This document shows, one piece after another, positions 1 through 16,947 of a DNA stretch of 17,265 nt; position 1 is the first letter of the stretch, and the number at the start of each line of letters is the position of its first letter. The notes under the pieces are model-generated. The model worked only from the letters and a program-made list of their open reading frames with translations. It did no database searches and was not told the origin of the DNA. The stretch is from a virus. Taxonomy: Duplodnaviria > Heunggongvirae > Uroviricota > Caudoviricetes. Location of the stretch: IMG/VR virus record IMGVR_UViG_2778261416_000002, positions 1 through 17,265 of that record. One strand, 5' to 3'. Made by a program: the position numbers and the translations under genes.

Positions 1-1362
1 ATGTTTAAACCGGAACTCCTTTCCCCGGCGGGAACGCTGAAAAATATGCGTTACGCTTTCGCTTATGGCGCAGATGCTGTTTATGCGGGCCAGCCGCGTT
101 ACTCCCTGCGTGTGCGCAACAACGAATTCAACCACGAAAATCTTCAGCTCGGCATCAATGAAGCCCACGCGCTGGGGAAAAAGTTTTATGTCGTGGTCAA
201 CATTGCACCGCACAACGCCAAGCTGAAAACCTTTATCCGTGACCTGAAACCGGTGGTGGAAATGGGGCCGGATGCGCTGATTATGTCCGATCCAGGGCTG
301 ATTATGCTGGTGCGTGAGCACTTCCCTGAAATGCCGATCCACCTTTCGGTGCAGGCTAACGCCGTGAACTGGGCGACGGTGAAATTCTGGCAGCAAATGG
401 GCCTGACCCGCGTGATCCTCTCTCGCGAGCTGTCGCTGGAAGAGATTGAAGAGATCCGCAATCAGGTGCCGGATATGGAGATCGAGATCTTCGTTCACGG
501 CGCGCTGTGCATGGCCTACTCCGGTCGCTGCCTGCTCTCTGGCTATATCAACAAGCGCGACCCGAACCAGGGCACCTGCACCAACGCCTGCCGCTGGGAG
601 TACAACGTCCAGGAAGGGAAAGAAGATGATGTTGGCAACATCGTACACAAGTACGAGCCGATTCCGGTGCAAAATGTTGAGCCGACGCTGGGTATCGGCG
701 CACCAACCGACAAAGTGTTTATGATCGAAGAGGCCCAGCGTCCGGGCGAGTATATGACCGCGTTTGAAGATGAGCACGGCACTTACATCATGAACTCGAA
801 AGATCTGCGCGCCATCGCCCATGTAGAACGCCTGACCAAAATGGGCGTGCATTCGCTGAAAATCGAAGGCCGTACTAAATCTTTCTACTATTGCGCACGC
901 ACCGCACAGGTTTACCGTAAAGCTATCGATGACGCCGCTGCGGGCAAACCGTTCGATACCAGCCTGCTGGAAACTCTGGAAGGTCTGGCGCATCGTGGCT
1001 ATACCGAAGGTTTCCTTCGTCGTCATACTCACGACGATTATCAGAACTACGAATACGGTTATTCAGTTTCTGACCGCCAGCAGTTTGTTGGTGAGTTTAC
1101 CGGTGAGCGCAAGGGGGACCTCGCAGCGGTAGCGGTGAAAAATAAATTCTCCGTTGGCGACAGCCTTGAGCTGATGACGCCGCAAGGCAACATTAACTTT
1201 ACCCTTGAGCACATGGAAAACGCCAAAGGTGAAGCGATGCCGGTCGCACCAGGCGATGGTTATACTGTGTGGCTCCCGGTCCCGCAGGATCTTGAGCTCA
1301 ATTACGCGCTGCTGATGCGTAATTTCTCCGGGGAAACCACGCGTAACCCCCACGGTAAGTGA
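1..1362 (+). CDS. yegQ: U32-family peptidase-like protein YegQ (TrhP, tRNA 5-hydroxyuridine synthesis)
   Basis: Complete 453-aa ORF starting at window position 1. The sequence matches my recollection of E. coli YegQ, and it sits in the expected position upstream of cyaR. Confidence 0.88.
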   Translation: MFKPELLSPAGTLKNMRYAFAYGADAVYAGQPRYSLRVRNNEFNHENLQLGINEAHALGKKFYVVVNIAPHNAKLKTFIRDLKPVVEMGPDALIMSDPGLIMLVREHFPEMPIHLSVQANAVNWATVKFWQQMGLTRVILSRELSLEEIEEIRNQVPDMEIEIFVHGALCMAYSGRCLLSGYINKRDPNQGTCTNACRWEYNVQEGKEDDVGNIVHKYEPIPVQNVEPTLGIGAPTDKVFMIEEAQRPGEYMTAFEDEHGTYIMNSKDLRAIAHVERLTKMGVHSLKIEGRTKSFYYCARTAQVYRKAIDDAAAGKPFDTSLLETLEGLAHRGYTEGFLRRHTHDDYQNYEYGYSVSDRQQFVGEFTGERKGDLAAVAVKNKFSVGDSLELMTPQGNINFTLEHMENAKGEAMPVAPGDGYTVWLPVPQDLELNYALLMRNFSGETTRNPHGK

Positions 1363-1396
1363 TTAATTTCGATTATTTTTCCCGGATGGAAAATTC

Positions 1397-1440
1397 TTAG
1401 AAACCGATCACATACAGCTGCATTTATTAAGGTTATCATC
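1397..1440 (+). promoter_or_regulatory. cyaR promoter: candidate class II CRP site (ttaga-N6-tcaca, 1397..1412) and -10 hexamer tatcat (1434..1439)
   Basis: The CRP half-site TCACA at 1408..1412 puts the site centre about 42 bp upstream of the predicted cyaR 5' end at 1447. A TATCAT -10 lies 8 nt upstream of that end. CyaR is known to be CRP-activated. Confidence 0.5.
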
Positions 1441-1446
1441 CGTTTC

Positions 1447-1533
1447 GCTGAAAAACATAACCCATAAAATGCTAGCTGTACCAGGAACCACCTCCTTAGC
1501 CTGTGTAATCTCCCTTACACGGGCTTATTTTTT
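1447..1533 (+). ncRNA. cyaR: CyaR (RyeE) Hfq-dependent small RNA
   Basis: The sequence gctgaaaaacataacccataaaatgctagctgtaccaggaaccacctccttagcctgtgtaatctcccttacacgggcttatttttt matches the CyaR sRNA as I recall it. It ends in an intrinsic terminator hairpin (cccttacacggg) plus a T-run. Location between yegQ and a P2-like ogr gene is the known context. Confidence 0.85.
1507..1533. repeat. attL: 27-bp P2 attachment core (aatctcccttacacgggcttatttttt) overlapping the 3' end of cyaR
   Basis: Exact 27-bp direct repeat of 16762..16788. It is the reverse complement of the P2 att core as I recall it (AAAAAATAAGCCCGTGTAAGGGAGATT). Confidence 0.8.
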
Positions 1534-1596
1534 ACGCGTAATACAATGAAATAAAAGGATTTATTTCTGGTCACGTCCACACATTGACCACATCGA

Positions 1597-1622
1597 CAAA
1601 AAAGCCCCTCGACTGAGGGGCT
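1597..1622 (-). terminator. Intrinsic terminator downstream of ogr
   Basis: Stem agcccctc/gaggggct (1603..1610 and 1615..1622, loop gact) followed on the minus strand by a T-run (A-run 1597..1602 on plus). Confidence 0.55.
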
Positions 1623-1634
1623 TCCTGTTTGTAA

Positions 1635-1853
1635 TTACATCCACATAATTTGCTGCCCTGACGGCAACGGGTGCGGCCTTACTGCGTGGACTTCTCCCGG
1701 CTTCACGATGTATCTCTGTACCGACTCATAAGTGATGAACGTGGCGCTGCAATTCACGTTCTGACACTGGTGATAACGCTCTTTTGTCGTGTCAGTGATA
1801 TAGCGGCTTGTACGCGCATGTGCGGCATGCTGGCATAAAGGACAATGAAACAT
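1635..1853 (-). CDS. ogr: Late gene transcriptional activator Ogr (zinc-finger)
   Basis: 72-aa product MFHCPLCQHAAHARTSRYITDTTKERYHQCQNVNCSATF... matches P2 Ogr including the Cys4 zinc-binding pattern. The supplied ORF has a 21-codon upstream extension that I trim to the canonical ATG at 1853. Confidence 0.88.
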   Translation of the reverse strand: MFHCPLCQHAAHARTSRYITDTTKERYHQCQNVNCSATFITYESVQRYIVKPGEVHAVRPHPLPSGQQIMWM

Positions 1854-1934
1854 CGCGAGCACCTCTTCCGGTTTTGTTGATGGTGCCATTTTAGTTAATT
1901 TATCCTTATAAAACAAACAGATAAAATAAAAACA

Positions 1935-3098
1935 TCACTCATCATCTTCTGTTTCGTACTCCACATCAGAAAGCCTGACCTCAAGCTCCAAGGACGTCGT
2001 GAAGCCGCTATTATTCAGAAAATGTGTCACCTTAGTGATTGTCCAGTCCTGCTCGTCTATGACGCGCTTAAAGCCTGACACTTTAACCGGTGTTTCCGTG
2101 TAAATATCAGCACGACCGGTAGCCAGACTGATGGAGAACTCCGCAACGCCCCGTTGCAGCTTATCCCACTTCGCCTGAGCGGCGCGCATGGCCTGTGCTT
2201 TCGTGGCATATACCGTGGTCAGTGCAAAAACGTTGTCAGCCTCACCGGCCATGTATTCACCTTCGCGCGCCTCCGGTACTTTTGGCGCTTTCTTCTGCGT
2301 GACTGGTTTCGCTTTCGGGTGCTCCAGTGCGCGCAGGTGTTTTTCTTTCTTTTTGCGTTTCAGTTTTACCTTCTGCTTTTGCGGCTTCGGGTCTTTGGTG
2401 TGTAACCACTTTGCCGTTACGCCGGTGTAAGCTCCACGGTCAGCAATCGCAAAATGATGACGGTCACCGTCGCTGCGGGTGATGGTAATCTGCGGGATTT
2501 TTTTACCGCTGGCCGTCACCCCCTGCCCCGCTTTGAGAAACAGCAGTTTTCCCATTTTTACCGACACCTCACCGCCGTTGCGTTCAGCAAGGCGGGTCAG
2601 GAATTTTGCATCAGACTCCTGCGACTGGTCGATGTGCGGGATTTTAATTCCGGCCAGTGACGGCGCGACACTGGCTTCCAGCCTGTTACGGGAGGCTATC
2701 GCCTCAACAATCGCACCGAGCGTGGTGTCATGCCATGAGCCTTCACGGCGGGAATTGAGCGTCCCGCGAAAATCTGCACTCCGGGCGCGGATGGTGACCA
2801 CATCCGGCGCGCCCCGGTGTTCAACCTCATCAACGGTGAATTTCCCTTTGCATACCAGGGCAAAACCTTTCCAGCCGATATACACCGTCAGGACAGCGCC
2901 ACGAACCGGCAGCCCGACCTGCCCGTCGGCATCGTTCAGTTCAATATCAAGCTGGTCAGCCTCAAAGCCCCGGTTATCCGTCAGGGTCATACTCATCAGA
3001 CGGTCGCTGATATTGCCGGTAATATCCCTGCTGTCGAGCATCAGCATGTAATCCGGCGTCAGCGTACTGCCTGCATCAAATGTCAGTGCATCCAGCAT
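1935..3098 (-). CDS. D: P2 tail protein D (late control gene D family)
   Basis: 387-aa ORF whose sequence and length match P2 gpD. Its ATG overlaps the U stop codon (TAATG) and it lies immediately upstream of ogr as in P2. Confidence 0.88.
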   Translation of the reverse strand: MLDALTFDAGSTLTPDYMLMLDSRDITGNISDRLMSMTLTDNRGFEADQLDIELNDADGQVGLPVRGAVLTVYIGWKGFALVCKGKFTVDEVEHRGAPDVVTIRARSADFRGTLNSRREGSWHDTTLGAIVEAIASRNRLEASVAPSLAGIKIPHIDQSQESDAKFLTRLAERNGGEVSVKMGKLLFLKAGQGVTASGKKIPQITITRSDGDRHHFAIADRGAYTGVTAKWLHTKDPKPQKQKVKLKRKKKEKHLRALEHPKAKPVTQKKAPKVPEAREGEYMAGEADNVFALTTVYATKAQAMRAAQAKWDKLQRGVAEFSISLATGRADIYTETPVKVSGFKRVIDEQDWTITKVTHFLNNSGFTTSLELEVRLSDVEYETEDDE

Positions 3099-3577
3099 TA
3101 TCCCGCCCCCGTCATACCCGTGAATCTGGTCGCCATACTGCCAGCTTTACCGATGAGCGATTCCGCCTGTTTACCGATATCGCCATAAAGCGCGGCCAGT
3201 GATTCATCAACGCGGGTGAGCGACAGCGTAAAATCAATTTTCCGGGGTGTGCCGTCTGCAAAGAAAATACTCCCTGTTTCACTCACCCTGCTGATGACAT
3301 ACATGCCGTAAATCATGCCGATGCCATCCAGCAACGGCCACGCCCGGCCTTCCTCTGCCATCAGCCTGAGCGTGGTCATCGTCAGCTTTCCGCCGGTCAG
3401 TTCGGGATAAAGCACACCGGCAAGCGTGATGTTTTCCTCGCCAACGCCGAGAAACTGGTAGGCATCCCGTTTACCGATACGGGAATTTGACGGCCAGCGA
3501 TAATCTGATTCACGCTGCATGGTCTGGTGTGGCAGCGTCTGGCGCATAAAAACAAACATACCTAACGCGAGCATCAT
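3098..3577 (-). CDS. U: P2 tail protein U
   Basis: 159-aa ORF between the T C-terminus and D, as in P2. Strong Shine-Dalgarno AGGAGGTGA 6 nt upstream of the ATG. Confidence 0.85.
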   Translation of the reverse strand: MMLALGMFVFMRQTLPHQTMQRESDYRWPSNSRIGKRDAYQFLGVGEENITLAGVLYPELTGGKLTMTTLRLMAEEGRAWPLLDGIGMIYGMYVISRVSETGSIFFADGTPRKIDFTLSLTRVDESLAALYGDIGKQAESLIGKAGSMATRFTGMTGAG

Positions 3578-3591
3578 TTTTCGTCACCTCC

Positions 3592-4911
3592 TTAACCGTC
3601 ATGCATCATGCTGGCACGGGCGCGCGCACGTTTATCCCGCTCGTATTTTTCGAGCGCATCCTGTAACTGGCGGTCAAGCTGTGTCCCCGGCGCAGTACCA
3701 CCCGTCAGGCTGATGTGATATTCGTTTTTACTCTGGTCCACATAAGAGCGGCCAGCCGGTGCCGTAACCGGCTGATAAGCCTGATAGTCTGCATAAGAGC
3801 TGGTCGCCGGAATATAACCACCGCTGCCATACGTGGCGGCTTGAGTTCTGGCGGCGGTCTGGTCAAGTGTGTCTGACTCTTTGTTGATAACACCGAGTTT
3901 TTCCAGTACCCAGTCAATTCCGCTGCGCAGTTTGTTGAACGCATTAAGCGGCAGCATCAGCGCGTCAGCCAGTGCCTGCCCGAACATGACGCCAGTATCA
4001 CGGCAACGGTTCAGGGTGTCCTGGGTGGCTTTGACCGGGGCAATCAGGTTTTTAAACCACTGCCACGCGGCCTGTAACTTTTCGCCCAGCCAGTCAAACA
4101 CCGGCTTAAGTGGCGTGAACAGTTCCCCCACCGGCGCAAATGCCGCTTTCAGCCCTTCCATCACACCGCCAAAGAATGCGCTGACAGGCTCCCAGTATTT
4201 ACGGATAAGCAACGCCCCGGCGACAATGGCGGCCACCACGGCCACAATCAGGTTGTTGGTCGCATCCATCACCAGTGCGTCAAGGCTGGCATAATCACCG
4301 CCCTTACCCACGCGGATAACCTCAGAGGTCGTGTGACCTTCCTCGTCAGTGACCTTGCTCATCACGCGCGCCGGGGCTTCATTGCGGTATTTCTGCAGCC
4401 AGCCGACCGCCACATCCTGCAGCATCGGATTGCTGCTGCGGTCAGAGGTTTCGGCACGCCTCACGCCGTTAAAACCGGCCATGATGAAATCAAGGGACTG
4501 GCGTTTGATAATGGCGTTACGGACACGGAGCTGGAAATCCTGATAACGCGCCCACAGGTCCAGCGTTTTGTAGCGGATATAAAAATCGAAGTTAATCTGG
4601 TCGCATTCGTACTTGTTTGACGCCAGCTTCGAGAAGTCCTTCGGCTGACGCTCGGTGCCACCGGCGGTGTCGGTGGTGCTGGCGATGGAGCCGGTGACAC
4701 CGATGCCAATTTTTTCCCCTTTCATTTCGCTGACCGGCACAATGTTGATGCGGGTCAGAAAGTCAGAGGACTCCTGCATGGTGTTCATCAGGGTCTGGGT
4801 GACCGACGGTTCAACGGTGAATTTTTTCGACACATCACCGGCGTCGATGCCGTTCAGTTCGGCAACACGGGACAGGTAGGCATTAAATTTAAAGCGGGTT
4901 TCCTGGCGCAT
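3592..4911 (-). CDS. Chimeric ORF: N-terminal ~222 aa of major capsid protein gpN fused in frame to C-terminal ~217 aa of tail tape measure protein gpT (deletion derivative)
   Basis: The N-terminus MRQETRFKFNAYLSRVAELNG... up to ...DALVMDATNNLI matches P2 gpN as I recall it, but the ORF is 439 aa where gpN is 357 aa. The C-terminal part has hydrophobic helices (VAVVAAIVAGALLI...) and ends immediately upstream of U, the position of the T 3' end. gpO lies directly upstream. The junction is near nt 4246. Confidence 0.7.
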   Translation of the reverse strand: MRQETRFKFNAYLSRVAELNGIDAGDVSKKFTVEPSVTQTLMNTMQESSDFLTRINIVPVSEMKGEKIGIGVTGSIASTTDTAGGTERQPKDFSKLASNKYECDQINFDFYIRYKTLDLWARYQDFQLRVRNAIIKRQSLDFIMAGFNGVRRAETSDRSSNPMLQDVAVGWLQKYRNEAPARVMSKVTDEEGHTTSEVIRVGKGGDYASLDALVMDATNNLIVAVVAAIVAGALLIRKYWEPVSAFFGGVMEGLKAAFAPVGELFTPLKPVFDWLGEKLQAAWQWFKNLIAPVKATQDTLNRCRDTGVMFGQALADALMLPLNAFNKLRSGIDWVLEKLGVINKESDTLDQTAARTQAATYGSGGYIPATSSYADYQAYQPVTAPAGRSYVDQSKNEYHISLTGGTAPGTQLDRQLQDALEKYERDKRARARASMMHDG

Positions 4912-4969
4912 AGTTTTTCCTGAAATTAAGGGTTAATCGTGAAGGTTTTCCCGGACTGACTGACGCCGG

Positions 4970-5824
4970 TCAGCAGTTCGTCATCAGGGCGTCACCGCCA
5001 CCACCGTTGGCCTTGCTGCGGCGCTGCTGGGTCAGACTTTCGGTGTGGTCGAGACTGTTTTTCAGGCGGGTGAATGCCTGGCTGGTTTCATCCGCCCTGT
5101 CAGTCACATCCTGCTTAAGGGCGGAAAAAGCGGTTTCCATCTCAGCGAGGCGCTGCTCAGTGGCGCTCAGTTTTTCCTGCACATGTTCAGCAACAGCGGT
5201 CACCGCTTCATGCACGTCATTCAGACGGGCGTCATCGCTGGCCTGTTTGCGGCCAAAAATGGACTTCACCTTTTCGGTCAGGGCGGTGAACACGGTTTCA
5301 GGCAGGTCTTCAAATTCCAGCTCAACGGGCGTTGCCACTGAAATCAGGTTTTCAGGGCTTAATTTGAAGCGGTTCAGGGGGTTGTGTTTTGCCGTGCGGC
5401 AGAATTCCAGGTATTCCGTGCCGAGGCTTGCCGGGTCATCGGTGACGGCCAGACCCACCAGATAACATTTGCCGGTATTGGCAAAGTTCGGCTGAATTTC
5501 CATTGAGGTATAGACCTTCTGCGCGGCCTTGTTCATCGCGATAAGGTCATCGGTCGGGGTGATTTTCGCAAACAGCGCCCATTTGCCTTTCAGCGCCGAA
5601 TCATCGTCAATCTTTTCGGCCTTCAGTTCGGCCACATCGCCATAACGCTTAAAAATACCGTCAGGCAGGATGCCTCGCAGATGTTCCAGGTTAATGCGGC
5701 AACCATAGACTCGCGGGTCAAAGGTTTCGGCCATTTCCTGAATATCCTGCGCACTGATGACACGCCCGTCACAGGTGTCACCCTCTACGCCGATACGAAA
5801 GAATTTTGAGACTTTTTTTGCCAT
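4970..5824 (-). CDS. O: Capsid scaffolding protein gpO
   Basis: 284-aa product beginning MAKKVSKFFRIGVEGDTCDGRV... matches P2 gpO. The supplied ORF extends 22 codons further upstream; I trim to the canonical ATG at 5824. Confidence 0.88.
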   Translation of the reverse strand: MAKKVSKFFRIGVEGDTCDGRVISAQDIQEMAETFDPRVYGCRINLEHLRGILPDGIFKRYGDVAELKAEKIDDDSALKGKWALFAKITPTDDLIAMNKAAQKVYTSMEIQPNFANTGKCYLVGLAVTDDPASLGTEYLEFCRTAKHNPLNRFKLSPENLISVATPVELEFEDLPETVFTALTEKVKSIFGRKQASDDARLNDVHEAVTAVAEHVQEKLSATEQRLAEMETAFSALKQDVTDRADETSQAFTRLKNSLDHTESLTQQRRSKANGGGGDALMTNC

Positions 5825-5997
5825 TGTCAGGAGTCCTGAATAGTGATTAGAGGAGTCACATGTCGGCATCAGTTTCCCGACGATGCGCATCCTCCGCCAT
5901 CAGTCCCGGATGGCTTATCACTGACACAACAGCACCTTAGCGAATCGCGGGGCGCGACTCAGTAGCCTTGCCGTGTATTCATCACGGCGAGGTATTC

Positions 5998-7770
5998 ATG
6001 ACCATCACCACAGACACCACTCTTTTACACGACCCGCGTCGTCAGGCGGCGCTGCTGTACTGGCAGGGATTTTCCGTGCCGCAGATTGCCGCCATGTTGC
6101 AGATGAAACGCCCGACGGTGCAGAGCTGGAAACAGCGCGACGGCTGGGACAGCGTTGCCCCCATCAGCCGTGTCGAAATGAGTCTGGAAGCGCGGCTGAC
6201 CCAGCTCATCATCAAACCGCAGAAAACCGGCGGTGACTTCAAGGAAATTGACCTGCTCGGACGCCAGATTGAACGACTGGCACGGGTCAACCGTTACAGT
6301 CAGACCGGCAACGAGGCAGACCTTAATCCGAACGTCGCTAACCGCAACAAAGGCGGGCGGCGCAAACCGAAAAAGAATTTTTTCAGTGACGAGGCCATCG
6401 AAAAGCTGGAGCAGATTTTCTTTGAGCAGTCTTTCGAATATCAGTTGCACTGGTATCGCGCCGGGCTTGAGCACCGCATCCGCGATATCCTGAAATCCCG
6501 CCAGATTGGCGCGACGTTTTATTTTTCCCGCGAGGCGCTGCTGCGCGCCCTGAAAACAGGTCATAACCAGATTTTTCTGTCGGCCAGTAAAACGCAGGCG
6601 TATGTGTTCCGCGAATACATCATCGCCTTTGCCCGGCTGGTTGACGTTGACCTGACCGGTGACCCGATTGTCCTGGGCAATAACGGCGCAAAACTGATTT
6701 TTCTCGGCACCAACTCCAACACCGCGCAGAGCCATAACGGCGACCTGTACGTCGATGAGATTTTCTGGATCCCGAATTTTCAGGTACTGCGTAAGGTGGC
6801 ATCAGGTATGGCCTCACAGAGTCACCTGCGCTCGACCTATTTCTCCACCCCGTCCACGCTGGCGCACGACGCCTACCCGTTCTGGTCGGGTGAACTGTTC
6901 AACCGGGGACGCGCCAGCGCCGCCGAACGCGTGGAAATCGACGTCAGTCATAATGCCCTTGCCGGTGGGCTTCTCTGTGCGGACGGTCAGTGGCGGCAGA
7001 TTGTCACCATTGAGGACGCCCTGAAAGGCGGCTGCACACTGTTCGACATTGAGCAGCTCAAACGCGAAAACAGCGCCGACGATTTTAAAAACCTGTTCAT
7101 GTGTGAATTTGTTGACGACAAGGCGTCGGTATTCCCGTTCGAGGAGCTGCAACGCTGCATGGTCGACACGCTGGAAGAATGGGAAGACTATGCGCCGTTT
7201 GCCGCCAATCCGTTCGGCTCCCGCCCGGTATGGATTGGTTACGACCCGTCACACCGTGGCGACAGCGCCGGATGCGTGGTGCTGGCACCGCCGGTGGTGG
7301 CCGGTGGCAAATTCAGAATACTTGAGCGTCACCAGTGGAAAGGCATGGACTTTGCCACCCAGGCGGAATCCATCCGCAAACTCACCGAAAAATACAACGT
7401 CGAATACATCGGAATTGATGCCACCGGCCTCGGTGTCGGCGTGTTCCAGCTCGTGCGCTCGTTCTATCCCGCCGCGCGCGACATCCGCTACACGCCGGAA
7501 ATGAAAACCGCAATGGTGCTCAAGGCAAAAGACGTTATCCGCCGTGGCTGTCTGGAATATGACGTCAGCGCCACCGACATCACCAGCTCGTTTATGGCTA
7601 TCCGCAAGACCATGACCAGCAGCGGACGCAGCGCCACCTATGAGGCCAGCCGCAGCGAGGAAGCCAGCCACGCCGACCTCGCATGGGCGACCATGCACGC
7701 CCTGTTAAATGAGCCACTCACCGCCGGTATCAGCACCCCGCTGACATCCACCATTCTGGAGTTTTACTGA
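5998..7770 (+). CDS. P: Terminase ATPase (large) subunit gpP
   Basis: 590-aa product beginning MTITTDTTLLHDPRRQAALLYWQGFSVPQIA... matches P2 gpP. The supplied ORF begins at a TTG at 5968; the ATG at 5998 has a GAGG Shine-Dalgarno 5 nt upstream. Divergent from O, as in P2. Confidence 0.88.
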   Translation: MTITTDTTLLHDPRRQAALLYWQGFSVPQIAAMLQMKRPTVQSWKQRDGWDSVAPISRVEMSLEARLTQLIIKPQKTGGDFKEIDLLGRQIERLARVNRYSQTGNEADLNPNVANRNKGGRRKPKKNFFSDEAIEKLEQIFFEQSFEYQLHWYRAGLEHRIRDILKSRQIGATFYFSREALLRALKTGHNQIFLSASKTQAYVFREYIIAFARLVDVDLTGDPIVLGNNGAKLIFLGTNSNTAQSHNGDLYVDEIFWIPNFQVLRKVASGMASQSHLRSTYFSTPSTLAHDAYPFWSGELFNRGRASAAERVEIDVSHNALAGGLLCADGQWRQIVTIEDALKGGCTLFDIEQLKRENSADDFKNLFMCEFVDDKASVFPFEELQRCMVDTLEEWEDYAPFAANPFGSRPVWIGYDPSHRGDSAGCVVLAPPVVAGGKFRILERHQWKGMDFATQAESIRKLTEKYNVEYIGIDATGLGVGVFQLVRSFYPAARDIRYTPEMKTAMVLKAKDVIRRGCLEYDVSATDITSSFMAIRKTMTSSGRSATYEASRSEEASHADLAWATMHALLNEPLTAGISTPLTSTILEFY

Positions 7771-8804
7771 TGAGCAAGAAAAAAGGGAAAACACCGCAAC
7801 CTGCGGCAAAAAAAATGACCGCCAGCGCCCTGAAAATGGAGGCATTCACCTTTGGTGAGCCGGTGCCGGTACTCGACCGCCGTGACATTCTGGATTACGT
7901 CGAGTGCATCAGTAACGGCAGATGGTATGAGCCACCGGTCAGCTTTACCGGTCTGGCAAAAAGCCTGCGTGCTGCCGTGCATCACAGCTCACCGATTTAC
8001 GTTAAACGCAATATTCTGGCCTCGACATTTATCCCGCATCCGTGGCTTTCTCAGCAGGATTTTAGCCGCTTTGTACTGGATTTTCTGGTGTTCGGTAATG
8101 CGTTTCTGGAAAAGCGTTACAGCACCACCGGTAAGGTCATCAGACTGGAAACCTCACCGGCAAAATATACCCGCCGTGGTGTGGAAGAGGATGTTTACTG
8201 GTGGGTGCCGTCCTTCAACGAGCCGACACCTTTCACGCCCGGCTCCGTGTTTCACCTGCTGGAGCCGGATATTAATCAGGAGCTGTACGGCCTGCCGGAA
8301 TATCTCAGCGCCCTTAATTCTGCCTGGCTGAATGAGTCGGCCACGCTGTTCCGCCGCAAGTATTACGAAAACGGCGCACATGCCGGATACATCATGTACG
8401 TCACTGATGCCGTGCAGGATCGCAACGATATCGAAATGCTTCGCGAAAACATGGTTAAGTCGAAAGGCCGCAACAACTTTAAAAACCTGTTTCTCTATGC
8501 CCCGCAGGGGAAAGCTGACGGCATTAAAATTATCCCGCTCAGTGAAGTGGCAACGAAGGACGATTTTTTTAATATCAAAAAAGCCAGCGCCGCTGACCTG
8601 CTGGACGCACACCGCATCCCCTTTCAGTTGATGGGCGGCAAGCCGGAGAACGTCGGGTCGCTGGGTGATATTGAGAAAGTGGCAAAGGTCTTTGTCCGCA
8701 ATGAGCTTATCCCGTTACAGGACAGGATCCGCGAGATAAACGGCTGGCTCGGTCAGGAGGTCATCCGCTTTAAAAACTACTCACTGGACACTGACAACGG
8801 CTGA
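7770..8804 (+). CDS. Q: Portal (capsid portal vertex) protein gpQ
   Basis: 344-aa product matching P2 gpQ in sequence and length. Its start overlaps the P stop (TGATG). It is transcribed toward cos, as in P2. Confidence 0.88.
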   Translation: MSKKKGKTPQPAAKKMTASALKMEAFTFGEPVPVLDRRDILDYVECISNGRWYEPPVSFTGLAKSLRAAVHHSSPIYVKRNILASTFIPHPWLSQQDFSRFVLDFLVFGNAFLEKRYSTTGKVIRLETSPAKYTRRGVEEDVYWWVPSFNEPTPFTPGSVFHLLEPDINQELYGLPEYLSALNSAWLNESATLFRRKYYENGAHAGYIMYVTDAVQDRNDIEMLRENMVKSKGRNNFKNLFLYAPQGKADGIKIIPLSEVATKDDFFNIKKASAADLLDAHRIPFQLMGGKPENVGSLGDIEKVAKVFVRNELIPLQDRIREINGWLGQEVIRFKNYSLDTDNG

Positions 8805-8808
8805 ACAT

Positions 8809-8830
8809 CGCCGCCTGCGGGCGGCTTTTT
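8809..8830 (+). terminator. Intrinsic terminator downstream of Q
   Basis: GC stem gccgcc/ggcggc with loop tgcg, followed by tttttt (8825..8830). Confidence 0.6.
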
Positions 8831-8965
8831 TACACCCCGCCCTCACACGCTCACCACCGCACAAAACATCCCGCAGACACACCAACGCCCCGGCGAACAA
8901 TCTAAACGCCATCACGACGCGCTCAGACGCTGAAAAAATAAAATCAGCACTACCGCCAGCGCGCA

Positions 8966-8984
8966 GTGCTTTCCCCGCCTCGCC
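8966..8984. other. cos site: 19-nt cohesive-end sequence of P2 (gtgctttccccgcctcgcc, reverse complement of GGCGAGGCGGGGAAAGCAC)
   Basis: Exact match to the P2 19-nt cohesive end as I recall it, in the expected position just past the 3' end of Q. Confidence 0.8.
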
Positions 8985-9008
8985 CGCCCGCTTCATGAGA
9001 CGGTTTTA

Positions 9009-10721
9009 ATGCAGTTGCATTATGTCCCGCTCCTCAGTGCTGCGCTCCATCCTGATTACAAAAACCGTTATCAAAAACACATGCAAATAGACGCAGTCAA
9101 ATGCGCTACCGCCTCTCGCAATACCTTCAATTTCATGATAAAAAACATCATCCCTAACAAGAGCATTATCCTCATGAAAAAAGTATATGAACTAACCAGT
9201 GAAGAAGCACTGTCATATTTTCTTCGCCATGACTCCTACACAACCTTAGAATTACCGGCTTATATTAATTTCACCACATTATTAAATGATATTAATTCAT
9301 CTATCCATAACAAAAAAATTAAAATTGAACCAACCGCCAAGGAGCTGATGGGTAAAGATATCAATTATGAGGTGCTTGTCAGTAAAGATGGTCTATATAG
9401 CTGGCGTAGGATAACACTTATCAATCCCCTTTATTATGTCTACTTCTGTAGAAAAATCACAGCACCAGCAACCTGGGAAATCATAACAGAAAAATTCAAA
9501 TCTTTTGAATCAAACGACCTTTTTACATGTTCAAGCATCCCCGTCAGAAAAGACAACTCGTCAAACATTGCTGCATCTGTAATGAATTGGTGGGAAGATT
9601 TTGAACAAAAAAGCCTTGCCCTTGCTCTTGAATACGAATTCATGTTCAGCACTGACATCTCAAACTTCTACCCATCAATATATACTCATAGTTTTGAATG
9701 GGTATTCATATCAAAAGAAGAGGCAAAGAAGAAAAAAAGCAAAAATAACCCAGGAGGATTAATTGACAGCCACATTCAAATGATGATGAACAACCAGACA
9801 AATGGTATTCCACTCGGCAGCACATTGATGGATACATTTGCTGAGCTTATCTTGGGTCAAATCGATATAGAATTAAGAAAAAAAACTAACGAACTCAAAA
9901 TAATAAACTACAAGGTAGTACGCTATCGTGATGATTACCGGATCTTCTCTAATAGCAAAGATGATTTAGACATAATATCAAAATGTTTAGTCAATGTATT
10001 GGGCGATTTTGGTTTAGATCTAAACTCAAAAAAAACTGAACTATATGAAGACATCATACTTCATTCGTTGAAACAAGCTAAAAAAGACTACATCAAAGAA
10101 AAAAGACATAAGTCACTCCAGAAAATGCTCTATTCAATATATTTATTTTCACTTAAACATCCAAACTCGAAAACAACCGTTAGATATCTAAATGATTTTC
10201 TTAGGAATTTATTTAAGCGAAAGACAATTAAAGATAACGGCCAACAGGTTGATGCTATGCTTGGTATTATTTCAAGCATCATGGCAAAAAACCCTACAAC
10301 GTACCCAGTAGGAACGGCAATTTTCTCAAAACTCCTCAGTTTTCTTTATGGTGATGACACCCAAAAAAAATTAACAAAGCTAGAACAACTCCATAAAAAA
10401 CTGGATAAACAACCCAATACAGAAATGCTTGACATATGGTTTCAGCGAACTCAAGCAAAAATAAACCTAGAGTGGGATAAATCTTATAAGTCAGCTCTAT
10501 GCGTCCGTATAAATGATGAACTCACAAAAGAGAAAACATTTTCTGTAAATAATTTATGGAATATTGACTGGATCCAAGGAAAAGAAACAAGCCCCAATAA
10601 AGCCAAAATATTATCCTTGCTAAGAAAAACAAAAATCGTTGACACAGATAAATTTGATAAAATGGATGAAAATATAACACCTGAAGAAGTTAATCTATTC
10701 TTTAAAGAGCACAGCAATTAA
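9009..10721 (+). CDS. Reverse transcriptase, stand-alone defence-associated type (Abi-P2 / UG-Abi-like) with a C-terminal helical extension
   Basis: RT motif A FSTDISNFYPSI (about 9645..9680), motif B NGIPLGSTLMDTFAELIL (9801..9854) and motif C VRYRDDY (9918..9938). The ORF is strongly AT-rich compared with flanking phage genes and sits in the cos-to-A variable locus. The true start may be an internal ATG at 9135 or 9174; the latter has aagag about 10 nt upstream. Confidence 0.8.
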   Translation: MQLHYVPLLSAALHPDYKNRYQKHMQIDAVKCATASRNTFNFMIKNIIPNKSIILMKKVYELTSEEALSYFLRHDSYTTLELPAYINFTTLLNDINSSIHNKKIKIEPTAKELMGKDINYEVLVSKDGLYSWRRITLINPLYYVYFCRKITAPATWEIITEKFKSFESNDLFTCSSIPVRKDNSSNIAASVMNWWEDFEQKSLALALEYEFMFSTDISNFYPSIYTHSFEWVFISKEEAKKKKSKNNPGGLIDSHIQMMMNNQTNGIPLGSTLMDTFAELILGQIDIELRKKTNELKIINYKVVRYRDDYRIFSNSKDDLDIISKCLVNVLGDFGLDLNSKKTELYEDIILHSLKQAKKDYIKEKRHKSLQKMLYSIYLFSLKHPNSKTTVRYLNDFLRNLFKRKTIKDNGQQVDAMLGIISSIMAKNPTTYPVGTAIFSKLLSFLYGDDTQKKLTKLEQLHKKLDKQPNTEMLDIWFQRTQAKINLEWDKSYKSALCVRINDELTKEKTFSVNNLWNIDWIQGKETSPNKAKILSLLRKTKIVDTDKFDKMDENITPEEVNLFFKEHSN

Positions 10722-10730
10722 TATCCCAAA

Positions 10731-10760
10731 GCCATGTTAGTAACATAACATGGCTTTTTT
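10731..10760 (+). terminator. Intrinsic terminator downstream of the RT gene (possibly bidirectional with convergent gene A)
   Basis: Hairpin gccatgtt-agtaacat-aacatggc followed by tttttt (10755..10760), 10 nt after the RT stop codon. Confidence 0.6.
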
Positions 10761-10824
10761 AAATCACTCATTATCAGTTATCAAGAACGAACATAACATT
10801 CTATTCCGAGGAGTTAAATTATCA

Positions 10825-13110
10825 TTAGATCCACTTAATATCCGTTATATCCTCCAGCCACTCCTCATCTACCAGATAGGTGAATTTTTTCCCGTCATAA
10901 TTTACGGTTGCTCCACGCGCCAGCGCCTCAAGCTCCCATCGCTGCGGCCTGATACCGTTCTGAGCGAGGTCAACGCGGATACGGGTAATTTGCATTCGTT
11001 CCGACCGGGTCAGTCTGGCCGATGGTGCCATTTCATACTGTTTTAACGGGCTTCCGTTTCTCTGCTGACGATTTGGTGTTCTCAGTCCGCATTTTAATGC
11101 ACCTCTGAGCGCCCTCACAACCTCCGGGTCACTCCATTCGATAACACCGTCATCAACCAGATTAAGCACTGCTGCGGCGTGTTCAGAAGGTGTGGGAGCC
11201 GGTAACGAAGTATCACCACCGGTGAGCTTTCCACAGTTATTGACAGGACTCCGAGGCGCGGCGATGCCGCTTTTTAAAGTCAAAGGCTCAACGACCGGCA
11301 CTTTCGGAACAATGCGCCAGTCCGTCGTTCTGGTGATATGAATATGACGCGCGCCGAGATGCGGCGCGTAAATGCCGACCACTCTCTCGACTTCTTCCTC
11401 GTACTCGTTAACTTCATCCGACGGACTACGGGCGACCCTGACAGTCTGACAATCGCGCGGGACATTTGCCCCACCCTGCGCGCTGATATACAGCGCAAAA
11501 TCGCCACTGTCTGCGGCAGCGCGTGCAGCCTCGACGCGTTCGTCAAACTCATCAGCAATGCTGACGCCGCGAGGTAATTTGCGTAGTTCACGGTAAGCCC
11601 CCATTGTCGGCAGGCCAACCGTTTTAAATTGCGGAATGCGCCACGTTGACGCCCATGCGGTAACAGCCGCGGCAGTGTCTTTCAGCGGCCTGCCGGTGTC
11701 GTTATCGAGCTGACCATCCAGTGCATAGCCGTCGATGTTTTTTGAAATGTATTTCGCGATATACCCCGCAGCACCGCCCCGGTTAAGGTGTTTTGCCTGA
11801 AAACGGTTTCGCGCGGCTCCTCTTTCGTCGCCATCCTCTTTGAGCGCATAGCGACGCATGATTTCGATAATCTGGTTACGCTGGCGCGGATTACAAAAAA
11901 GCATCATATGCCAGTGCGGCGTTCCGTCGTGGTGTGGCTCGACGACACGCAAACCGTAGACCTGTAAATCATTATCCTTGAATGCCGTGCGCATCAGGCT
12001 CCAGATACGGCAGAGATAACGCTGCGCATCCTTTGGATTAAATGCCTCATCGTTCCAGCCGTGATTTAGCTGGACGGTTTTACTTTCGCCTTTTCTGACC
12101 TGACGTGTCGGGTGATACTTTGACGGCGCGGTCAGCGTGATAAACATCCCCACATCACCCTCTGCTGCGGCGTAACGCTCAATACCGGCAATGGTGTTCA
12201 TCAGCTCCATCCGGCGAATTTCAGGATTAGAAATACTGCCCATCACCTTACTGATAAGGTCGATGCGCTCGCCGGTTTCCCTGTTTTCAAGGTCACACGA
12301 TTTAAGAAATTCCAGATTTGCCTGGCGGCGCGCACGCACATCACGAATGGCATGTTTACTGGCATAAGGAGAACGGTCTTTATTGACCTCCCCGACAGCT
12401 ATCAGTAACGCTTCATGCCAGCGCATACGCTGGCCTTTAAGCTGATGAGTCCACCACTCATCGTTAAACAGACGGGCAATGGCAGAATATGCCTGCCTCG
12501 TGGTCATCTGTCCTTTACGGTATTTTTTCCAGTAGAGCGGGGAAATATTGAAAGCACGTGCAGCGCCAGCAACATGACCATACAGGTGAGCCTGCGCCTC
12601 ATCCGTAAACAGCGATTCTTTTTCACCATGCGCATCAACCCATGCATCACAGAGTTCCTCATACATCATGAAAAGCTGCGATGAGATACGGGCGGCAAAC
12701 TTTTTCAGCTCCTTGTCATTCATTCCCGGCAGGCGCGCATAGTGATCACGCTCTGCCAGAAACAGCAACGACGCGTCGGTGTTCATTTCATGGCGCTGAT
12801 TCACACGCTCAATGCGCGGCCATAAACGACGCTGAAAAGTAGATGTGAGGAAATAAAACCCGTGCACCGGGCTTTTATTGCGCCGGATGTAGTCATAGCG
12901 TGAAGTAAACAGCGAGCGCAAAAAGTAAGGCAGGCGGTTAATCGTGGATAAAACACCTTGCACCTGACGCATCTCGTCACGTGTAAGAGGTCTTTCGCGC
13001 CCGACAGCCTCGCGTGGCGCGTTCCATGCATAAGCACCGGTAAACGCCTTACCGGTGCCTGCGGTAAATGCTGACGGAGGGACAAAACGCCCGGAGGCTT
13101 TAACGGCCAT
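10825..13110 (-). CDS. A: Replication initiation protein gpA (rolling-circle endonuclease)
   Basis: 761-aa product beginning MAVKASGRFVPPSAFTAG... matches P2 gpA in length and N-terminus. It contains the HxH-type motif region (PHWHMMLF) and tyrosine-rich region typical of the family. The supplied ORF begins at an upstream TTG; I trim to the ATG at 13110. Confidence 0.88.
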   Translation of the reverse strand: MAVKASGRFVPPSAFTAGTGKAFTGAYAWNAPREAVGRERPLTRDEMRQVQGVLSTINRLPYFLRSLFTSRYDYIRRNKSPVHGFYFLTSTFQRRLWPRIERVNQRHEMNTDASLLFLAERDHYARLPGMNDKELKKFAARISSQLFMMYEELCDAWVDAHGEKESLFTDEAQAHLYGHVAGAARAFNISPLYWKKYRKGQMTTRQAYSAIARLFNDEWWTHQLKGQRMRWHEALLIAVGEVNKDRSPYASKHAIRDVRARRQANLEFLKSCDLENRETGERIDLISKVMGSISNPEIRRMELMNTIAGIERYAAAEGDVGMFITLTAPSKYHPTRQVRKGESKTVQLNHGWNDEAFNPKDAQRYLCRIWSLMRTAFKDNDLQVYGLRVVEPHHDGTPHWHMMLFCNPRQRNQIIEIMRRYALKEDGDERGAARNRFQAKHLNRGGAAGYIAKYISKNIDGYALDGQLDNDTGRPLKDTAAAVTAWASTWRIPQFKTVGLPTMGAYRELRKLPRGVSIADEFDERVEAARAAADSGDFALYISAQGGANVPRDCQTVRVARSPSDEVNEYEEEVERVVGIYAPHLGARHIHITRTTDWRIVPKVPVVEPLTLKSGIAAPRSPVNNCGKLTGGDTSLPAPTPSEHAAAVLNLVDDGVIEWSDPEVVRALRGALKCGLRTPNRQQRNGSPLKQYEMAPSARLTRSERMQITRIRVDLAQNGIRPQRWELEALARGATVNYDGKKFTYLVDEEWLEDITDIKWI

Positions 13111-13375
13111 ATGAGCCAAAAGCCTCTGAACAACGCTTGCTGAGTTGCTCAACCTGCGCGTTTAAATCAGCAAAAGATTTTGCGCTTCCGGTCAGAATAT
13201 CGTGATGCATCAGGCCGGAAACGAGCTGGCCTAATTTCGGGTAATAACCAACCACCGCCAGCCATTCCTGACCGGCGTTTTTACCGCTTTCCGCTCTCTT
13301 TTTCTCGTGGAGAATAAACTGAAAGCTGTCACTGGTAACGACATAACGTTCGCCAATTTCAATACGAATACTCAT
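13100..13375 (-). CDS. P2 Orf83-like small early protein (function unknown)
   Basis: 91-aa ORF in the orf83 position immediately upstream of A. Its ATG overlaps the preceding stop (ATGA), with a GGAGAA Shine-Dalgarno. Confidence 0.65.
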   Translation of the reverse strand: MSIRIEIGERYVVTSDSFQFILHEKKRAESGKNAGQEWLAVVGYYPKLGQLVSGLMHHDILTGSAKSFADLNAQVEQLSKRCSEAFGSYGR

Positions 13376-13596
13376 GCCGTTCTCCGGTAATGTTTGTTTT
13401 TTGCTTCAAAGACTGACTGACAGGAAACACAACGCGTGGCTGACGGATAAGCCGCACGACGGGCAGCAGGTATTGGCGCGTCACACTCTTCGCAAACCAG
13501 CGCAGAAACACCGCAATGTTTTACCCTTGCCGCGTTAATCTGGCGCTCCAGTAATTCAGCCTGTTGTTCCTGAATAAAATCCACGTTGTCCGGCAT
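13372..13596 (-). CDS. P2 Orf82-like C4 zinc-finger protein (TraR/DksA family)
   Basis: 74-aa ORF with a CxxC...CxxC pattern (CEECDAPIPAARR...CVSCQ) characteristic of TraR/DksA-type zinc fingers, in the orf82 position. Confidence 0.7.
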   Translation of the reverse strand: MPDNVDFIQEQQAELLERQINAARVKHCGVSALVCEECDAPIPAARRAAYPSATRCVSCQSVFEAKNKHYRRTA

Positions 13597-13898
13597 TACC
13601 AGCTCCTTTTGTCGTTCAGCTTCTTAAATTCATCAGCGCAATAACTGGCGAGTTCTGTCGTTAATTTTGTCAGTTCATCCACTGAGGAAATTTGCTTGTG
13701 GAATACAGCGCGTTTAACAAGTAAATTGACCACATCAGACAGGAGGTTTAATTCACTCTGATAAATCGCGATAACAGATTCAGTTATTTCGCGCTTCTCT
13801 TTATCAATACCAAGTTGAATAAGAGACAAATCACCATTTTTCATAACGGCGATTTTTAAGGCGTTATTCAGTAATACAACCGAACGAGAACAGGACAT
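13596..13898 (-). CDS. P2 Orf81-like small early protein (function unknown)
   Basis: 100-aa ORF from the ATG at 13898, which overlaps the orf80 stop (ATGA). The supplied ORF starts one codon earlier at a TTG. Confidence 0.65.
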   Translation of the reverse strand: MSCSRSVVLLNNALKIAVMKNGDLSLIQLGIDKEKREITESVIAIYQSELNLLSDVVNLLVKRAVFHKQISSVDELTKLTTELASYCADEFKKLNDKRSW

Positions 13899-14122
13899 CA
13901 AAGCACCTCCCCGCGAGACAATCCGATATTGTGAAATTTTTCCGACTCCTGACTGAGCAGCTCAACTATCTCCACGCGGGATAACTCCGCCTTTGTGATG
14001 TGGCGAATCATGGCGTCAAGATGAGAAGAAAAGCGCGTCGCAGCGTCGGCCTGTGCTTCGGTTCTGGCCTGTTGCAGCAGTAATGCGTATTTACCGCACT
14101 GATTTTCAGAAACTGTATGCAT
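13898..14122 (-). CDS. P2 Orf80-like small early protein (function unknown)
   Basis: 74-aa ORF with a GGAGAAAG Shine-Dalgarno upstream of the ATG, in the early operon between B and orf81. Confidence 0.65.
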
Positions 14123-14185
14123 GACTTTCTCCAGGCAAAAAGAAGCCCCGCACGATTAAGTGCGTTAAAAACTCTGGTTAATTAC

Positions 14186-14686
14186 TTAATGCAGATATTG
14201 CTCTGGTTTTACCGACGTCAGAATTGTCGGTGCATACTCAAACAGGCTGAATAATTCACGTAATGCACGGAATAAAGCATCACGCCAGTAACATGACTCT
14301 TCATTAATTCGCCAGTATGGCTGGTTAAATTCTTTTTCAGTCAATCCGGCATGCATAAATAAAGTACGACGCTGACTGACTGTTAAAAAACTAATATATG
14401 CATACTCACTTGCACCGACCTGACGACGTTTTGAGAATGCCCCACGCAATTCATCAATTGCACATACCAGTCGTTCACGTTCGACGTCGTTCATTTCTTC
14501 AAAACGCATCGTTGCGTGACGCTGTTTTAACTGCGCATGAAAGCAAACTGTTAGCCGTTCGCGCTCCATCATCTGATTATAATAATCACATGTATCCTGC
14601 CAGCGAGGAACGGCAAGATGCTTACCAATTATCCGGCGCATAGCTGCTGGCTGTTTTTCAACGAGATTGAGCGTCATCACTGTCAT
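14186..14686 (-). CDS. B: Replication protein gpB (helicase loader-like)
   Basis: 166-aa product MTVMTLNLVEKQPAAMRRIIGKHLAVPRWQDTCDYYNQMMERERL... matches P2 gpB. A GGAGGG Shine-Dalgarno is optimally spaced for the ATG at 14686 rather than the one at 14692. Confidence 0.85.
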   Translation of the reverse strand: MTVMTLNLVEKQPAAMRRIIGKHLAVPRWQDTCDYYNQMMERERLTVCFHAQLKQRHATMRFEEMNDVERERLVCAIDELRGAFSKRRQVGASEYAYISFLTVSQRRTLFMHAGLTEKEFNQPYWRINEESCYWRDALFRALRELFSLFEYAPTILTSVKPEQYLH

Positions 14687-14853
14687 TTCCATACCCTCCG
14701 GCTTTTCAGAAAGGTCAGAGCCTTTTTTAACGGACTCTGTTTTTTGGTGCGGATAATGATTCCCTTACGCCCCTTACCGTGGGTGATGGTGAAGTCAATC
14801 GCCCTGGGGCTTTCGTTACGCAGTAACTGAGCAATACAACGAGGCTCATTCAT
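14683..14853 (-). CDS. P2 Orf78-like small protein (function unknown)
   Basis: 56-aa ORF with a perfect AAGGAGA Shine-Dalgarno 5 nt upstream of the ATG at 14853. Its stop overlaps the B start (ATGA). The supplied ORF begins at an upstream GTG. Confidence 0.6.
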   Translation of the reverse strand: MNEPRCIAQLLRNESPRAIDFTITHGKGRKGIIIRTKKQSPLKKALTFLKSRRVWK

Positions 14854-14863
14854 ACGGTTCTCC

Positions 14864-15139
14864 TTAACGTGGTTCACCGAGACCTAACCACATCAACCAG
14901 CCGTCACGAATCTCTTTAGGTCGGCTTTCATAAGCCAGTTTTAGTCCGTTATTCCATGCCGGAAGGTATACCCAATATTCACCTGCACGACCTGAAGCTG
15001 ATTGTGGATCGGTCATATCAATTACAGGCAGCTTTCCTTTATCGATCATCCGACGAACCGCTCCTGTCGATTTTCCTATTAGTTTTGCGAACTCCTGATA
15101 AGGAATCGCATCAGTCATGAGTGTTACTTGCTTGCTCAT
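14864..15139 (-). CDS. cox: Cox protein (excisionase and repressor of Pc; directionality factor)
   Basis: 91-aa product MSKQVTLMTDAIPYQEFAKLIGKSTGAVRRMIDKGKLPVIDMTD... matches P2 Cox. It is divergent from C and first gene of the early operon. Confidence 0.88.
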   Translation of the reverse strand: MSKQVTLMTDAIPYQEFAKLIGKSTGAVRRMIDKGKLPVIDMTDPQSASGRAGEYWVYLPAWNNGLKLAYESRPKEIRDGWLMWLGLGEPR

Positions 15140-15149
15140 GTCGTCCTCT

Positions 15150-15260
15150 AGCCCTCATGAATTGCGTTTAATGTCTTATAATGCCTTTTAGTGCCCACAT
15201 CCAAGCACTAAACAATCTACATCTAAACTAAATACTATTGAGATCTAAACACCATGTCAA
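15150..15260. promoter_or_regulatory. Immunity switch region: candidate Pc (-10 tataat 15177..15182, plus strand), candidate Pe (-35 ttgaca and -10 tagtat on minus strand, plus-strand coordinates 15255..15260 and 15233..15238), and two 8-bp direct-repeat C operators atctaaac (15221..15228, 15243..15250)
   Basis: Hexamers are read directly from the sequence; the Pe spacer is 16 bp. The two direct repeats are 22 bp centre to centre and flank the Pe -10, as described for P2 C repressor operators O1/O2. Predicted Pe and Pc transcripts would converge and overlap. Confidence 0.55.
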
Positions 15261-15553
15261 ACACGATAAGCGAGAAGATAGTCTTAATGCGAAAATCAGA
15301 GTATTTGAGCAGACAACAACTTGCTGATTTAACAGGGGTTCCGTATGGCACGCTGAGTTACTATGAAAGTGGTCGTTCAACACCTCCAACAGATGTCATG
15401 ATGAACATCCTGCAGACCCCACAATTCACCAAATACACTTTATGGTTCATGACCAATCAGATCGCTCCTGAGTCCGGGCAAATTGCGCCCGCTCTCGCAC
15501 ACTTTGGGCAAAACGAAACAACGTCGCCCCACTCCGGTCAAAAGACTGGTTAA
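15254..15553 (+). CDS. C: Immunity repressor C
   Basis: 99-aa product MSNTISEKIVLMRKSEYLSRQQLADLTGVPYGTLSYYESGRSTPP... matches P2 C repressor, with the helix-turn-helix region QQLADLTGVPYGTLSYYE. Confidence 0.88.
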   Translation: MSNTISEKIVLMRKSEYLSRQQLADLTGVPYGTLSYYESGRSTPPTDVMMNILQTPQFTKYTLWFMTNQIAPESGQIAPALAHFGQNETTSPHSGQKTG

Positions 15554-15668
15554 CAATTCATCGTGAATATATTCATCACAAGTGCCTACTATTGGTGGCT
15601 AAATTTCAGCCACCACGAAAAAAGCGATTAGTAGTCGCAAAAAAACACACCACTCGGAGGGTTTTCTG

Positions 15669-16682: not shown

Positions 16683-16761
16683 CGTTTAAGGGCTTTCAGT
16701 GGTAATTTATGCCGCTCAAACCCGCATTGTACCGTTGAAAGCCCCTACTGGTGACACCCTA

Positions 16762-16788
16762 AATCTCCCTTACACGGGCTTATTTTTT
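16762..16788. repeat. attR: second copy of the 27-bp P2 attachment core
   Basis: Exact repeat of 1507..1533; this copy is followed by one extra T. It lies 80 bp downstream of int. Confidence 0.8.
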
Positions 16789-16947
16789 TATGCATAAGCC
16801 CTATCTCTGGTAACCGTCTTCCATTGACCACATCGATAGAATCCTCCTTCATAGCACGATGCCTTTCACTTATCGGCATCGTGCTCCCACAGGTTCCGGC
16901 TACGCACAGCCAGAACGCGCATATTTGACGCTTACCAAAAAATATTC

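Follow-up and report, generated by a model that had tools for sequence, protein, structure and literature searches.

The window, that is, the whole 17,265-nucleotide stretch of DNA that was analysed, opens on host sequence. Host yegQ/trhP lies to the left of the attL core, and the host CyaR (RyeE) small-RNA gene (positions 1445-1530, + strand; Rfam RF00112, 100.7 bits, E value 1.7e-19) overlaps with its 3' end the left copy of a 27-bp att core, AATCTCCCTTACACGGGCTTATTTTTT (attL, 1507-1533). The same core recurs as a perfect direct repeat at 16762-16788 (attR), with yegR to its right. The two att cores are spaced 15,255 bp apart, an element length in keeping with the 15.3 kb given by an earlier reading made from the letters alone (the sequence-only reading), and apart from one deletion the element is intact. 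Its colinear gene order (Q-P / O-N ... T-U-D-ogr; A-B-cox / C-int), an exact cos and the duplicated att core place it among the P2-like (Peduovirus) prophages.

Next to attL, three intact genes are read from the - strand: ogr, the late-gene activator (1635-1853; 72 aa; 100% identical to P2 Ogr residues 1-72 in tblastn; PF04606), D (1935-3098; 387 aa; a full-length match to P2 gpD at 98.5% identity; PF05954) and U (3098-3577; 159 aa; a full-length match to P2 gpU at 98.1% identity; PF06995). Beyond the ORF treated below come gene O for the scaffold/protease (4970-5824, - strand; 284 aa; 99.6% identical to P2 gpO), gene P for the large terminase (5998-7770, + strand; 590 aa; 99.7%) and gene Q for the portal (7770-8804, + strand; 344 aa; 99.4%), all three intact and matched over their full length. 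The 19-nt cohesive-end sequence of P2, GGCGAGGCGGGGAAAGCAC, has an exact match at 8966-8984 on the - strand (0.01 expected by chance), which is where the P2 record ends.

Between cos and A, in the variable locus, stands a full-length reverse-transcriptase-like defence gene, Abi-P2 (P2-EC30 orf570; 9009-10721, + strand), which covers positions 4-487 of the 489-position PADLOC AbiP2 profile (1e-161), is 99.7% identical in nucleotides to the P2-EC30 record AM157365, and encodes a protein that matches the solved P2-EC30 structure PDB 7r08 at 1202 bits (chain residues 1-541). This gene has been reported to give resistance to phage T5 (PMC9508834). Gene A, the replication endonuclease (10825-13110, - strand; 761 aa; 96.2% over residues 1-760; PF05840), and gene B (14186-14686, - strand; 166 aa; 100% to P2 gpB) are intact as well. 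Taken together, ogr, D, U, O, P, Q, A, four small early ORFs and B are kept at full length and uninterrupted, with 92-100% identity to P2 (tblastn).

The rightmost genes are heteroimmune variants or relatives of the P2 ones: cox (14864-15139, - strand; 91 aa; PF10743, 5.5e-48; 45% amino acid identity to P2 Cox), the C-type repressor (15254-15553, + strand; 99 aa; HTH_3; 46% to P2 C) and the integrase (15669-16682, + strand; 337 aa; PF24624 and PF00589; 52% to P2 Int). All three are intact, and at 45-52% identity they represent a different immunity and integration module; the same integrase module stands at yegR in 806 complete Escherichia coli genomes. Two small ORFs (10750-11046 and 16745-16960) had no Pfam match and were taken as spurious.

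The interval between O, immediately upstream, and U, immediately downstream, is occupied by one ORF of 439 codons (3592-4911, - strand; 439 aa; RefSeq WP_097508780.1), uninterrupted from ATG to stop. The sequence-only reading had seen in it the start of the capsid protein gpN joined to the end of the tape-measure protein gpT, directly upstream of U, and BLASTP bears this out (gpN, 4e-166; gpT, 8e-159). The 5' part (4248-4911, - strand) encodes gpN residues 1-222, or 62% of the 357-aa capsid protein; the near-identical N-terminal match is lost past residue 222, gpN 1-221 is 99.5% identical to the window in tblastn, and the gpN structure PDB 7jw1 is matched at residues 1-224 only. The 3' part (3592-4244, - strand) encodes gpT residues 599-815 and the stop codon, begins within the gpT hydrophobic segment, and amounts to the last 27% of the tape measure; in BLASTP, residues 598-815 of the 815-aa gpT align with fusion residues 222/223-439 at 98% identity.

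Domain content tells the same story. The capsid domain PF05125 (P2-family major capsid protein, HK97 fold) is incomplete in the fusion, with profile positions 1-210 of 327 present and 211-327 missing, and the Pfam search found there no tape-measure domain PF10145 (PhageMin_Tail), which P2 gpT has at residues 239-440; the protein keeps gpT 599-815 only. The ORF is a chimera of two parents, gpN and gpT, and not a member of any single family; it is colinear with no one known protein, a truncated PF05125 being its only domain. Because the PF05125 match is partial and identity to gpN ends at residue 222 of 357, the name that NCBI gives WP_097508780.1, "P2 family phage major capsid protein", is misleading. 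One detail of the sequence-only reading has to be moved: it had described the C-terminus as hydrophobic, whereas the most hydrophobic segment is at fusion residues ~218-236 (Kyte-Doolittle 19-residue mean, 2.24), at and just past the junction, and the true C-terminus is highly charged. Antisense to the fusion, on the + strand, two ORFs in the junction region (3869-4294 and 4333-4620) had no Pfam match and were likewise taken as spurious.

The junction was mapped by three-way alignments of the window with N and T of P2 and of E. coli Combat13F7, together with a mismatch scan. Identity to gene N holds through fusion nucleotide 667 and identity to gene T begins at nucleotide 665, so that the crossover falls at 4245-4247, a 3-bp microhomology (CAA on the + strand, TTG on the coding strand); an in-frame breakpoint near position 4246 had been predicted correctly. 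On the coding strand N reads ...AACCTGATTG-AGCCGTGGTATC..., T reads ...GGCCGGTTGTGGCCGTGGTGGC... and the window reads ...AACCTGATTGTGGCCGTGGTGGC... at this point. The ORF is made up of 664 N-specific, 3 shared and 653 T-specific nucleotides (1320 nt), and the fusion is in frame because the TTG occupies codon positions 2-3-1 in both N and T. Beside the junction on the T side, 1-2 bases after the TTG, lies the 8-mer GCCGTGGT (window 4235-4242), whose N copy is one base out of register. Chance alone would give a 3-bp match at a good share of random junctions, which weighs against inferring a mechanism from it.

Genes N and T have 88 exact 8-mers in common, where random sequence would give ~40; joining at 51 of these would preserve the frame, so that microhomology and a kept frame need no special explanation. 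The 10-mer AACCTGATTG, which in N ends exactly at the breakpoint and recurs in T 197 nt downstream, was considered as the mediator of the deletion and rejected, since the window retains the T sequence between both sites. Judging by the junction sequence, illegitimate recombination of a RecA-independent type, or replication slippage, may have taken place at the 3-bp TTG with the imperfect 8-bp match nearby. N codon 222 was joined to T codon 599 by one internal deletion of ~16 kb.

Comparison with P2 (NC_070904.1, 33,562 bp) by blastn gave three colinear blocks at 96-98% nucleotide identity: window 1547-4247 with P2 10150-12852 (ogr, D, U and the 3' end of T), window 4235-8984 with P2 28806-33562 (the 5' part of N, then O, P and Q, to cos) and window 10854-14854 with P2 4196-8196 (A to B). 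The 13-bp overlap between the first two blocks turned out to be an imperfect match on base-by-base comparison. The P2 segment without a counterpart, 12853-28817, is 15,965 bp long, and the corresponding segment of the prophage in Combat13F7, the closest full-length E. coli relative (locus L003, 14051-30640), is 16,590 bp; the earlier estimate of roughly 17 kb was thus somewhat too large.

The missing genes are M, L, X, holin, endolysin, lysA/B/C, R, S, V, W, J, I, H, G, the Z/fun locus, FI, FII, E/E' and most of T, and with them the small terminase subunit, head completion, lysis, baseplate, fibre, sheath, tube and most tape-measure functions. The sequence-only reading had listed the genes that normally lie between N and T, in agreement with the annotation of P2 and of the full-length E. 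coli relative, and had declared them absent; in tblastn, P2 M, L, holin Y, endolysin K, V, J, H, FI and FII indeed found no match in the window, while the retained genes are full length. With the virion-assembly and lysis genes of its full-length relatives absent, the element is a defective prophage.

The window comes from a draft assembly (a 350,541-bp contig), and the evidence on the junction consists of assemblies, so a misjoin or collapse in a genome that really carries a full-length prophage has to be weighed. The fusion protein is also present in the Logan assembly of run SRR3971774, where a 54.8-kb contig matches window 1-14911 at 100% identity, junction included; this assembly is separate, but both were probably built from the same read set. 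Both the 54.8-kb Logan contig and the 350,541-bp NCBI contig pass unbroken through the element, and both assemblies have the novel junction between non-homologous parental positions. Collapse by the assembler is not credible because the parental sites share only 3 bp and the out-of-register 8-mer, far below an assembler k-mer. The junction is moreover clean and in frame, and analogous deletions occur in finished genomes. We regard an assembly artefact as extremely unlikely. Deletion during laboratory passage, or a heterogeneous sequenced culture, may lie behind the junction.

We are highly confident that a P2-like prophage (Peduovirus, P2-EC30 type) sits at cyaR/yegQ-yegR, that it has suffered one ~16-kb deletion, and that the fusion is a by-product of that deletion. 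Gene content and established P2 genetics indicate that the element would be unable to make capsids or tails, package DNA or lyse the cell on its own.

P2 has four Ogr-dependent late operons, read from the promoters P_P, P_O, P_V and P_F. The O-P intergenic region (5825-5997), where P2 has its divergent late promoters P_O and P_P, is identical at 131 of 131 positions (window 5860-5990) to both P2 and Combat13F7, and it is by this 100% identity to P2 that promoter integrity was judged. The exact Ogr-site consensus TGT-N12-ACA does not occur in the O-P intergenic region and has fewer matches than chance overall, and a generic scan of 1400-6100 for sigma-70 promoters and terminators gave no enrichment over shuffles. 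By analogy with P2, the deletion would remove P_V and P_F and place N'-'T, U and D behind an unchanged P_O, in a predicted operon O - N'-'T - U - D, so that the fusion should be synthesised only upon Ogr-dependent late transcription. Assembly is unlikely for a capsid protein deprived of its C-terminal 38%, and the fragment of tape measure would have no tail in which to act; the 439-aa fusion is thus predicted to be a non-functional by-product of the deletion and not a designed protein.

The exact deletion fits a recent, strain-specific event, because the fusion protein is a singleton: WP_097508780.1 is the sole member of its 90% identity cluster among ~15 billion proteins. No place covering the junction was found in 5,426 complete E. 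coli genomes. The kind of event, an internal deletion in a P2 prophage, is commonplace. At the same yegQ/yegR site, isolateD has an M'-'FII deletion, PE15 a P'-'FII deletion with a truncated A, and MB7671 an M'-'ogr deletion with an internal deletion in P. These three resemble the present element in site, early region and integrase module, in large internal deletions that remove lysis and tail genes and leave truncated or fused late genes, and in the defence or accessory locus kept between Q and A. They differ in their endpoints and, in some, by extra lesions (the truncated A and the internal P deletion), and RefSeq treats their remains as pseudogene fragments whereas ours is a continuous in-frame ORF.

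Other fusions turned up among the proteins. About 20 of the 120 best protein matches are further singleton chimeras of P2 late proteins, such as gpO-T (P0113), gpL-T (P0017) and sheath-T. Besides these, P0002 (GCA_958318355.1) is an independent in-frame N'-'T fusion of 753 aa, with gpN to ~203 and gpT from ~265. It has in common with the present ORF the gpN N-terminus joined in frame to a C-terminal part of gpT and the arrangement O - N'T - U - D - ogr; it differs in its junction, in keeping the PF10145 domain, in its chromosomal site beside cation-efflux, pfkA and tpiA genes, and in a more divergent T segment (88% overall to P2 gpT).

A second N'-'T fusion might suggest that such proteins have acquired a function, for example as a dominant-negative capsid subunit or a membrane-anchored protein directed against P2-like phages, and that the frame was selected. 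The preserved frame and intact ORF would agree with this, as would the retention of the gpN N-terminal part together with the gain of a strongly hydrophobic segment. Since a protein search detects in-frame fusions only, in-frame cases are no sign of selection for frame, and the P0002 case, whose junction (N ~203 / T ~265) is another, reflects this ascertainment bias. Both fusions are singletons, and 51 of the 88 N/T common 8-mers preserve the frame anyway. PADLOC matched the fusion to 0 defence families, and expression would require late-gene activation, which a quiescent prophage lacks. We give an acquired function almost no credence.

The deletion is best placed beside known relatives. Over window 4235-17265 the element matches, as a single block and at 98.6% identity, the prophage of Combat13F7, which occupies the same site and lies at 3382521-3416383 of NZ_CP019245.1; with P2-EC30 it has in common the Abi-P2 orf570 locus at 99.7% identity. 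The P2-EC30 and Combat13F7 elements differ from it in that their late region from N to T is complete (16,590 bp in Combat13F7). The remnant PR-X of E. coli K-12 MG1655 (cyaR - ogrK - yegZ - yegR) stems from the same phage lineage at the same chromosomal site, has an identical left junction (the cyaR 3' end and the att core) and has likewise lost internal P2 genes while ogr and part of D were kept beside attL. PR-X is a 629-bp end-stage remnant consisting of ogrK and the yegZ pseudogene, whereas the present element, at 15,255 bp and with one deletion, has all its other genes, cos and the two att cores intact, as befits an early stage of decay. It would be on the path to a PR-X-like remnant.

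A P2-like prophage reduced to 15.3 kb could also be viewed as a mobile, satellite-like replicon that excises, replicates and is packaged from its cos by a co-infecting P2-like helper, and so spreads Abi-P2. In favour of this, att cores, int, cox, A, B and ogr are intact and cos is exact, and a dimer of 30.5 kb would come near the capacity of the P2 head. Help between prophages can bring about the release and transfer of defective E. coli prophages (PMC2669165). The junction and the fusion protein are singletons, so there is no sign of spread; Pfam matches include no capsid-size or helper-exploitation genes, and no helper is evident. Short-read contigs that stay unbroken where the sequence is 98-100% identical to that of other P2 phages would also argue against a second close P2 relative in that genome. 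We consider helper-dependent mobility very unlikely.

The comparison with satellite P4 points the same way. P4 too is small and integrative, bears a cos, relies on the late genes of P2 and responds to or uses Ogr-type late activation; sid, psu, delta and the alpha primase are absent here, all genes being ordinary P2 genes or Abi-P2. The element is simply the helper type itself after a deletion, its spread is not evident, and with junction and fusion both singletons it is not a P4-like satellite or phage-inducible chromosomal island. A satellite only just arisen, in which a heteroimmune helper would package the ~30.5-kb dimer with its Abi-P2 gene and the N'-'T fusion may hinder assembly of the helper's capsid, is very unlikely indeed. 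If true, it would offer a snapshot of a satellite or defence island born in one step from its own helper type.

We return to the deleted P2-like prophage as the reading to retain: the feature is real and its interpretation by the sequence-only reading was right, and what it records is ordinary prophage decay at an early stage. Loss of the lysis and virion genes with the defence gene kept would be neutral or beneficial to the host. Loss of killing functions beside a kept defence gene fits what is generally described as prophage domestication (Bobay et al. 2014, cited in PMC6379469). Prophage predictors would score the element as incomplete. The main practical value of the finding is that it flags the misleading RefSeq name of WP_097508780.1, a chimera predicted to be non-functional. 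The locus offers a clean, datable first step of prophage decay, the end state of which is seen at the same site in K-12. Together with the other singleton chimeras, it shows that deletions in phage late genes, by fusing them in frame, keep feeding protein databases with odd "new" ORFs.

The 3' end of the host small RNA gene cyaR (RyeE; window 1445-1530, plus strand) overlaps the attL core (1507-1533) and falls within this 27-bp sequence; the CyaR 3' end and terminator are therefore supplied by the prophage end. PR-X, the cryptic P2 remnant in K-12, has an identical left junction. An imperfect direct repeat (40 nt, 75%), which includes ATTGACCACATCGA, lies just inside attL (1562-1601) and just outside attR (16802-16841), so homology between phage and host DNA reaches past the 27-bp core. 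This repeat could be extended attP/attB similarity or the trace of an older prophage. The cox/C/int module (14864-16682) has only 45-52% protein identity to its P2 counterparts, and the element that carries it still occupies the yegQ/yegR site via the 27-bp att core, which matches the core of P2. This module was also present at yegQ/yegR in 806 complete E. coli genomes.

The variable cos-to-A locus holds orf570 (9009-10721, plus strand), an Abi-P2 reverse-transcriptase-like abortive-infection gene with 99.7% DNA identity to phage P2-EC30 (AM157365) and a product matched by PDB 7r08. Its true start codon is ambiguous, because residues 25-565 of the 570-codon open reading frame are those aligned with the crystallised chain, and the counterpart in strain Combat13F7 is annotated in RefSeq as a 515-amino-acid version. 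At the same yegQ-yegR site, three finished E. coli genomes (isolateD, PE15, and MB7671) carry differently deleted P2-like prophages; each keeps the early region, and the accessory/defence cargo between Q and A differs among them, being a SIR2-family protein and an ATP-binding protein in MB7671.

The 10-mer CAATCAGGTT, which reads AACCTGATTG in the coding orientation, is present in two copies (4041-4050 and 4245-4254), and the deletion breakpoint is the exact end of the N copy. It was rejected as the recombination site of the N-T deletion, as the second copy, 204 bp away, is inside the T segment retained in the window; the double occurrence, with one copy at the breakpoint, is probably a coincidence. 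The N region that holds this breakpoint is also roughly where P0003, a 414-amino-acid gpN variant from E. coli (NCBI), has an internal tandem duplication of approximately 57 residues, in which EEGRTTSEVIRV...LLADKY occurs twice.

A second in-frame gpN-gpT fusion (P0002, 753 amino acids; positions 2699-4960 of its locus, on contig CATSQQ010000015.1 of GCA_958318355.1) is independent of the one in the window. Both have the gene order O - N'T - U - D - ogr, but the second differs in its junction and in its chromosomal site, which is adjoined by cation-efflux, pfkA, and tpiA genes. Approximately 20 of the 120 best protein matches were singleton chimeras in which either the C-terminus of gpT or the N-terminus of gpN is joined to one of various P2 late proteins; examples among these 120 matches are gpO-T (P0113), gpL-T (P0017), sheath-T (P0011, P0018, and P0019), and T-Cox (P0071). 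Misassembly could be behind some of those singletons that come from short Logan contigs. In public assemblies, in-frame fusions arising from deletions in P2-like prophages seem to be frequent.
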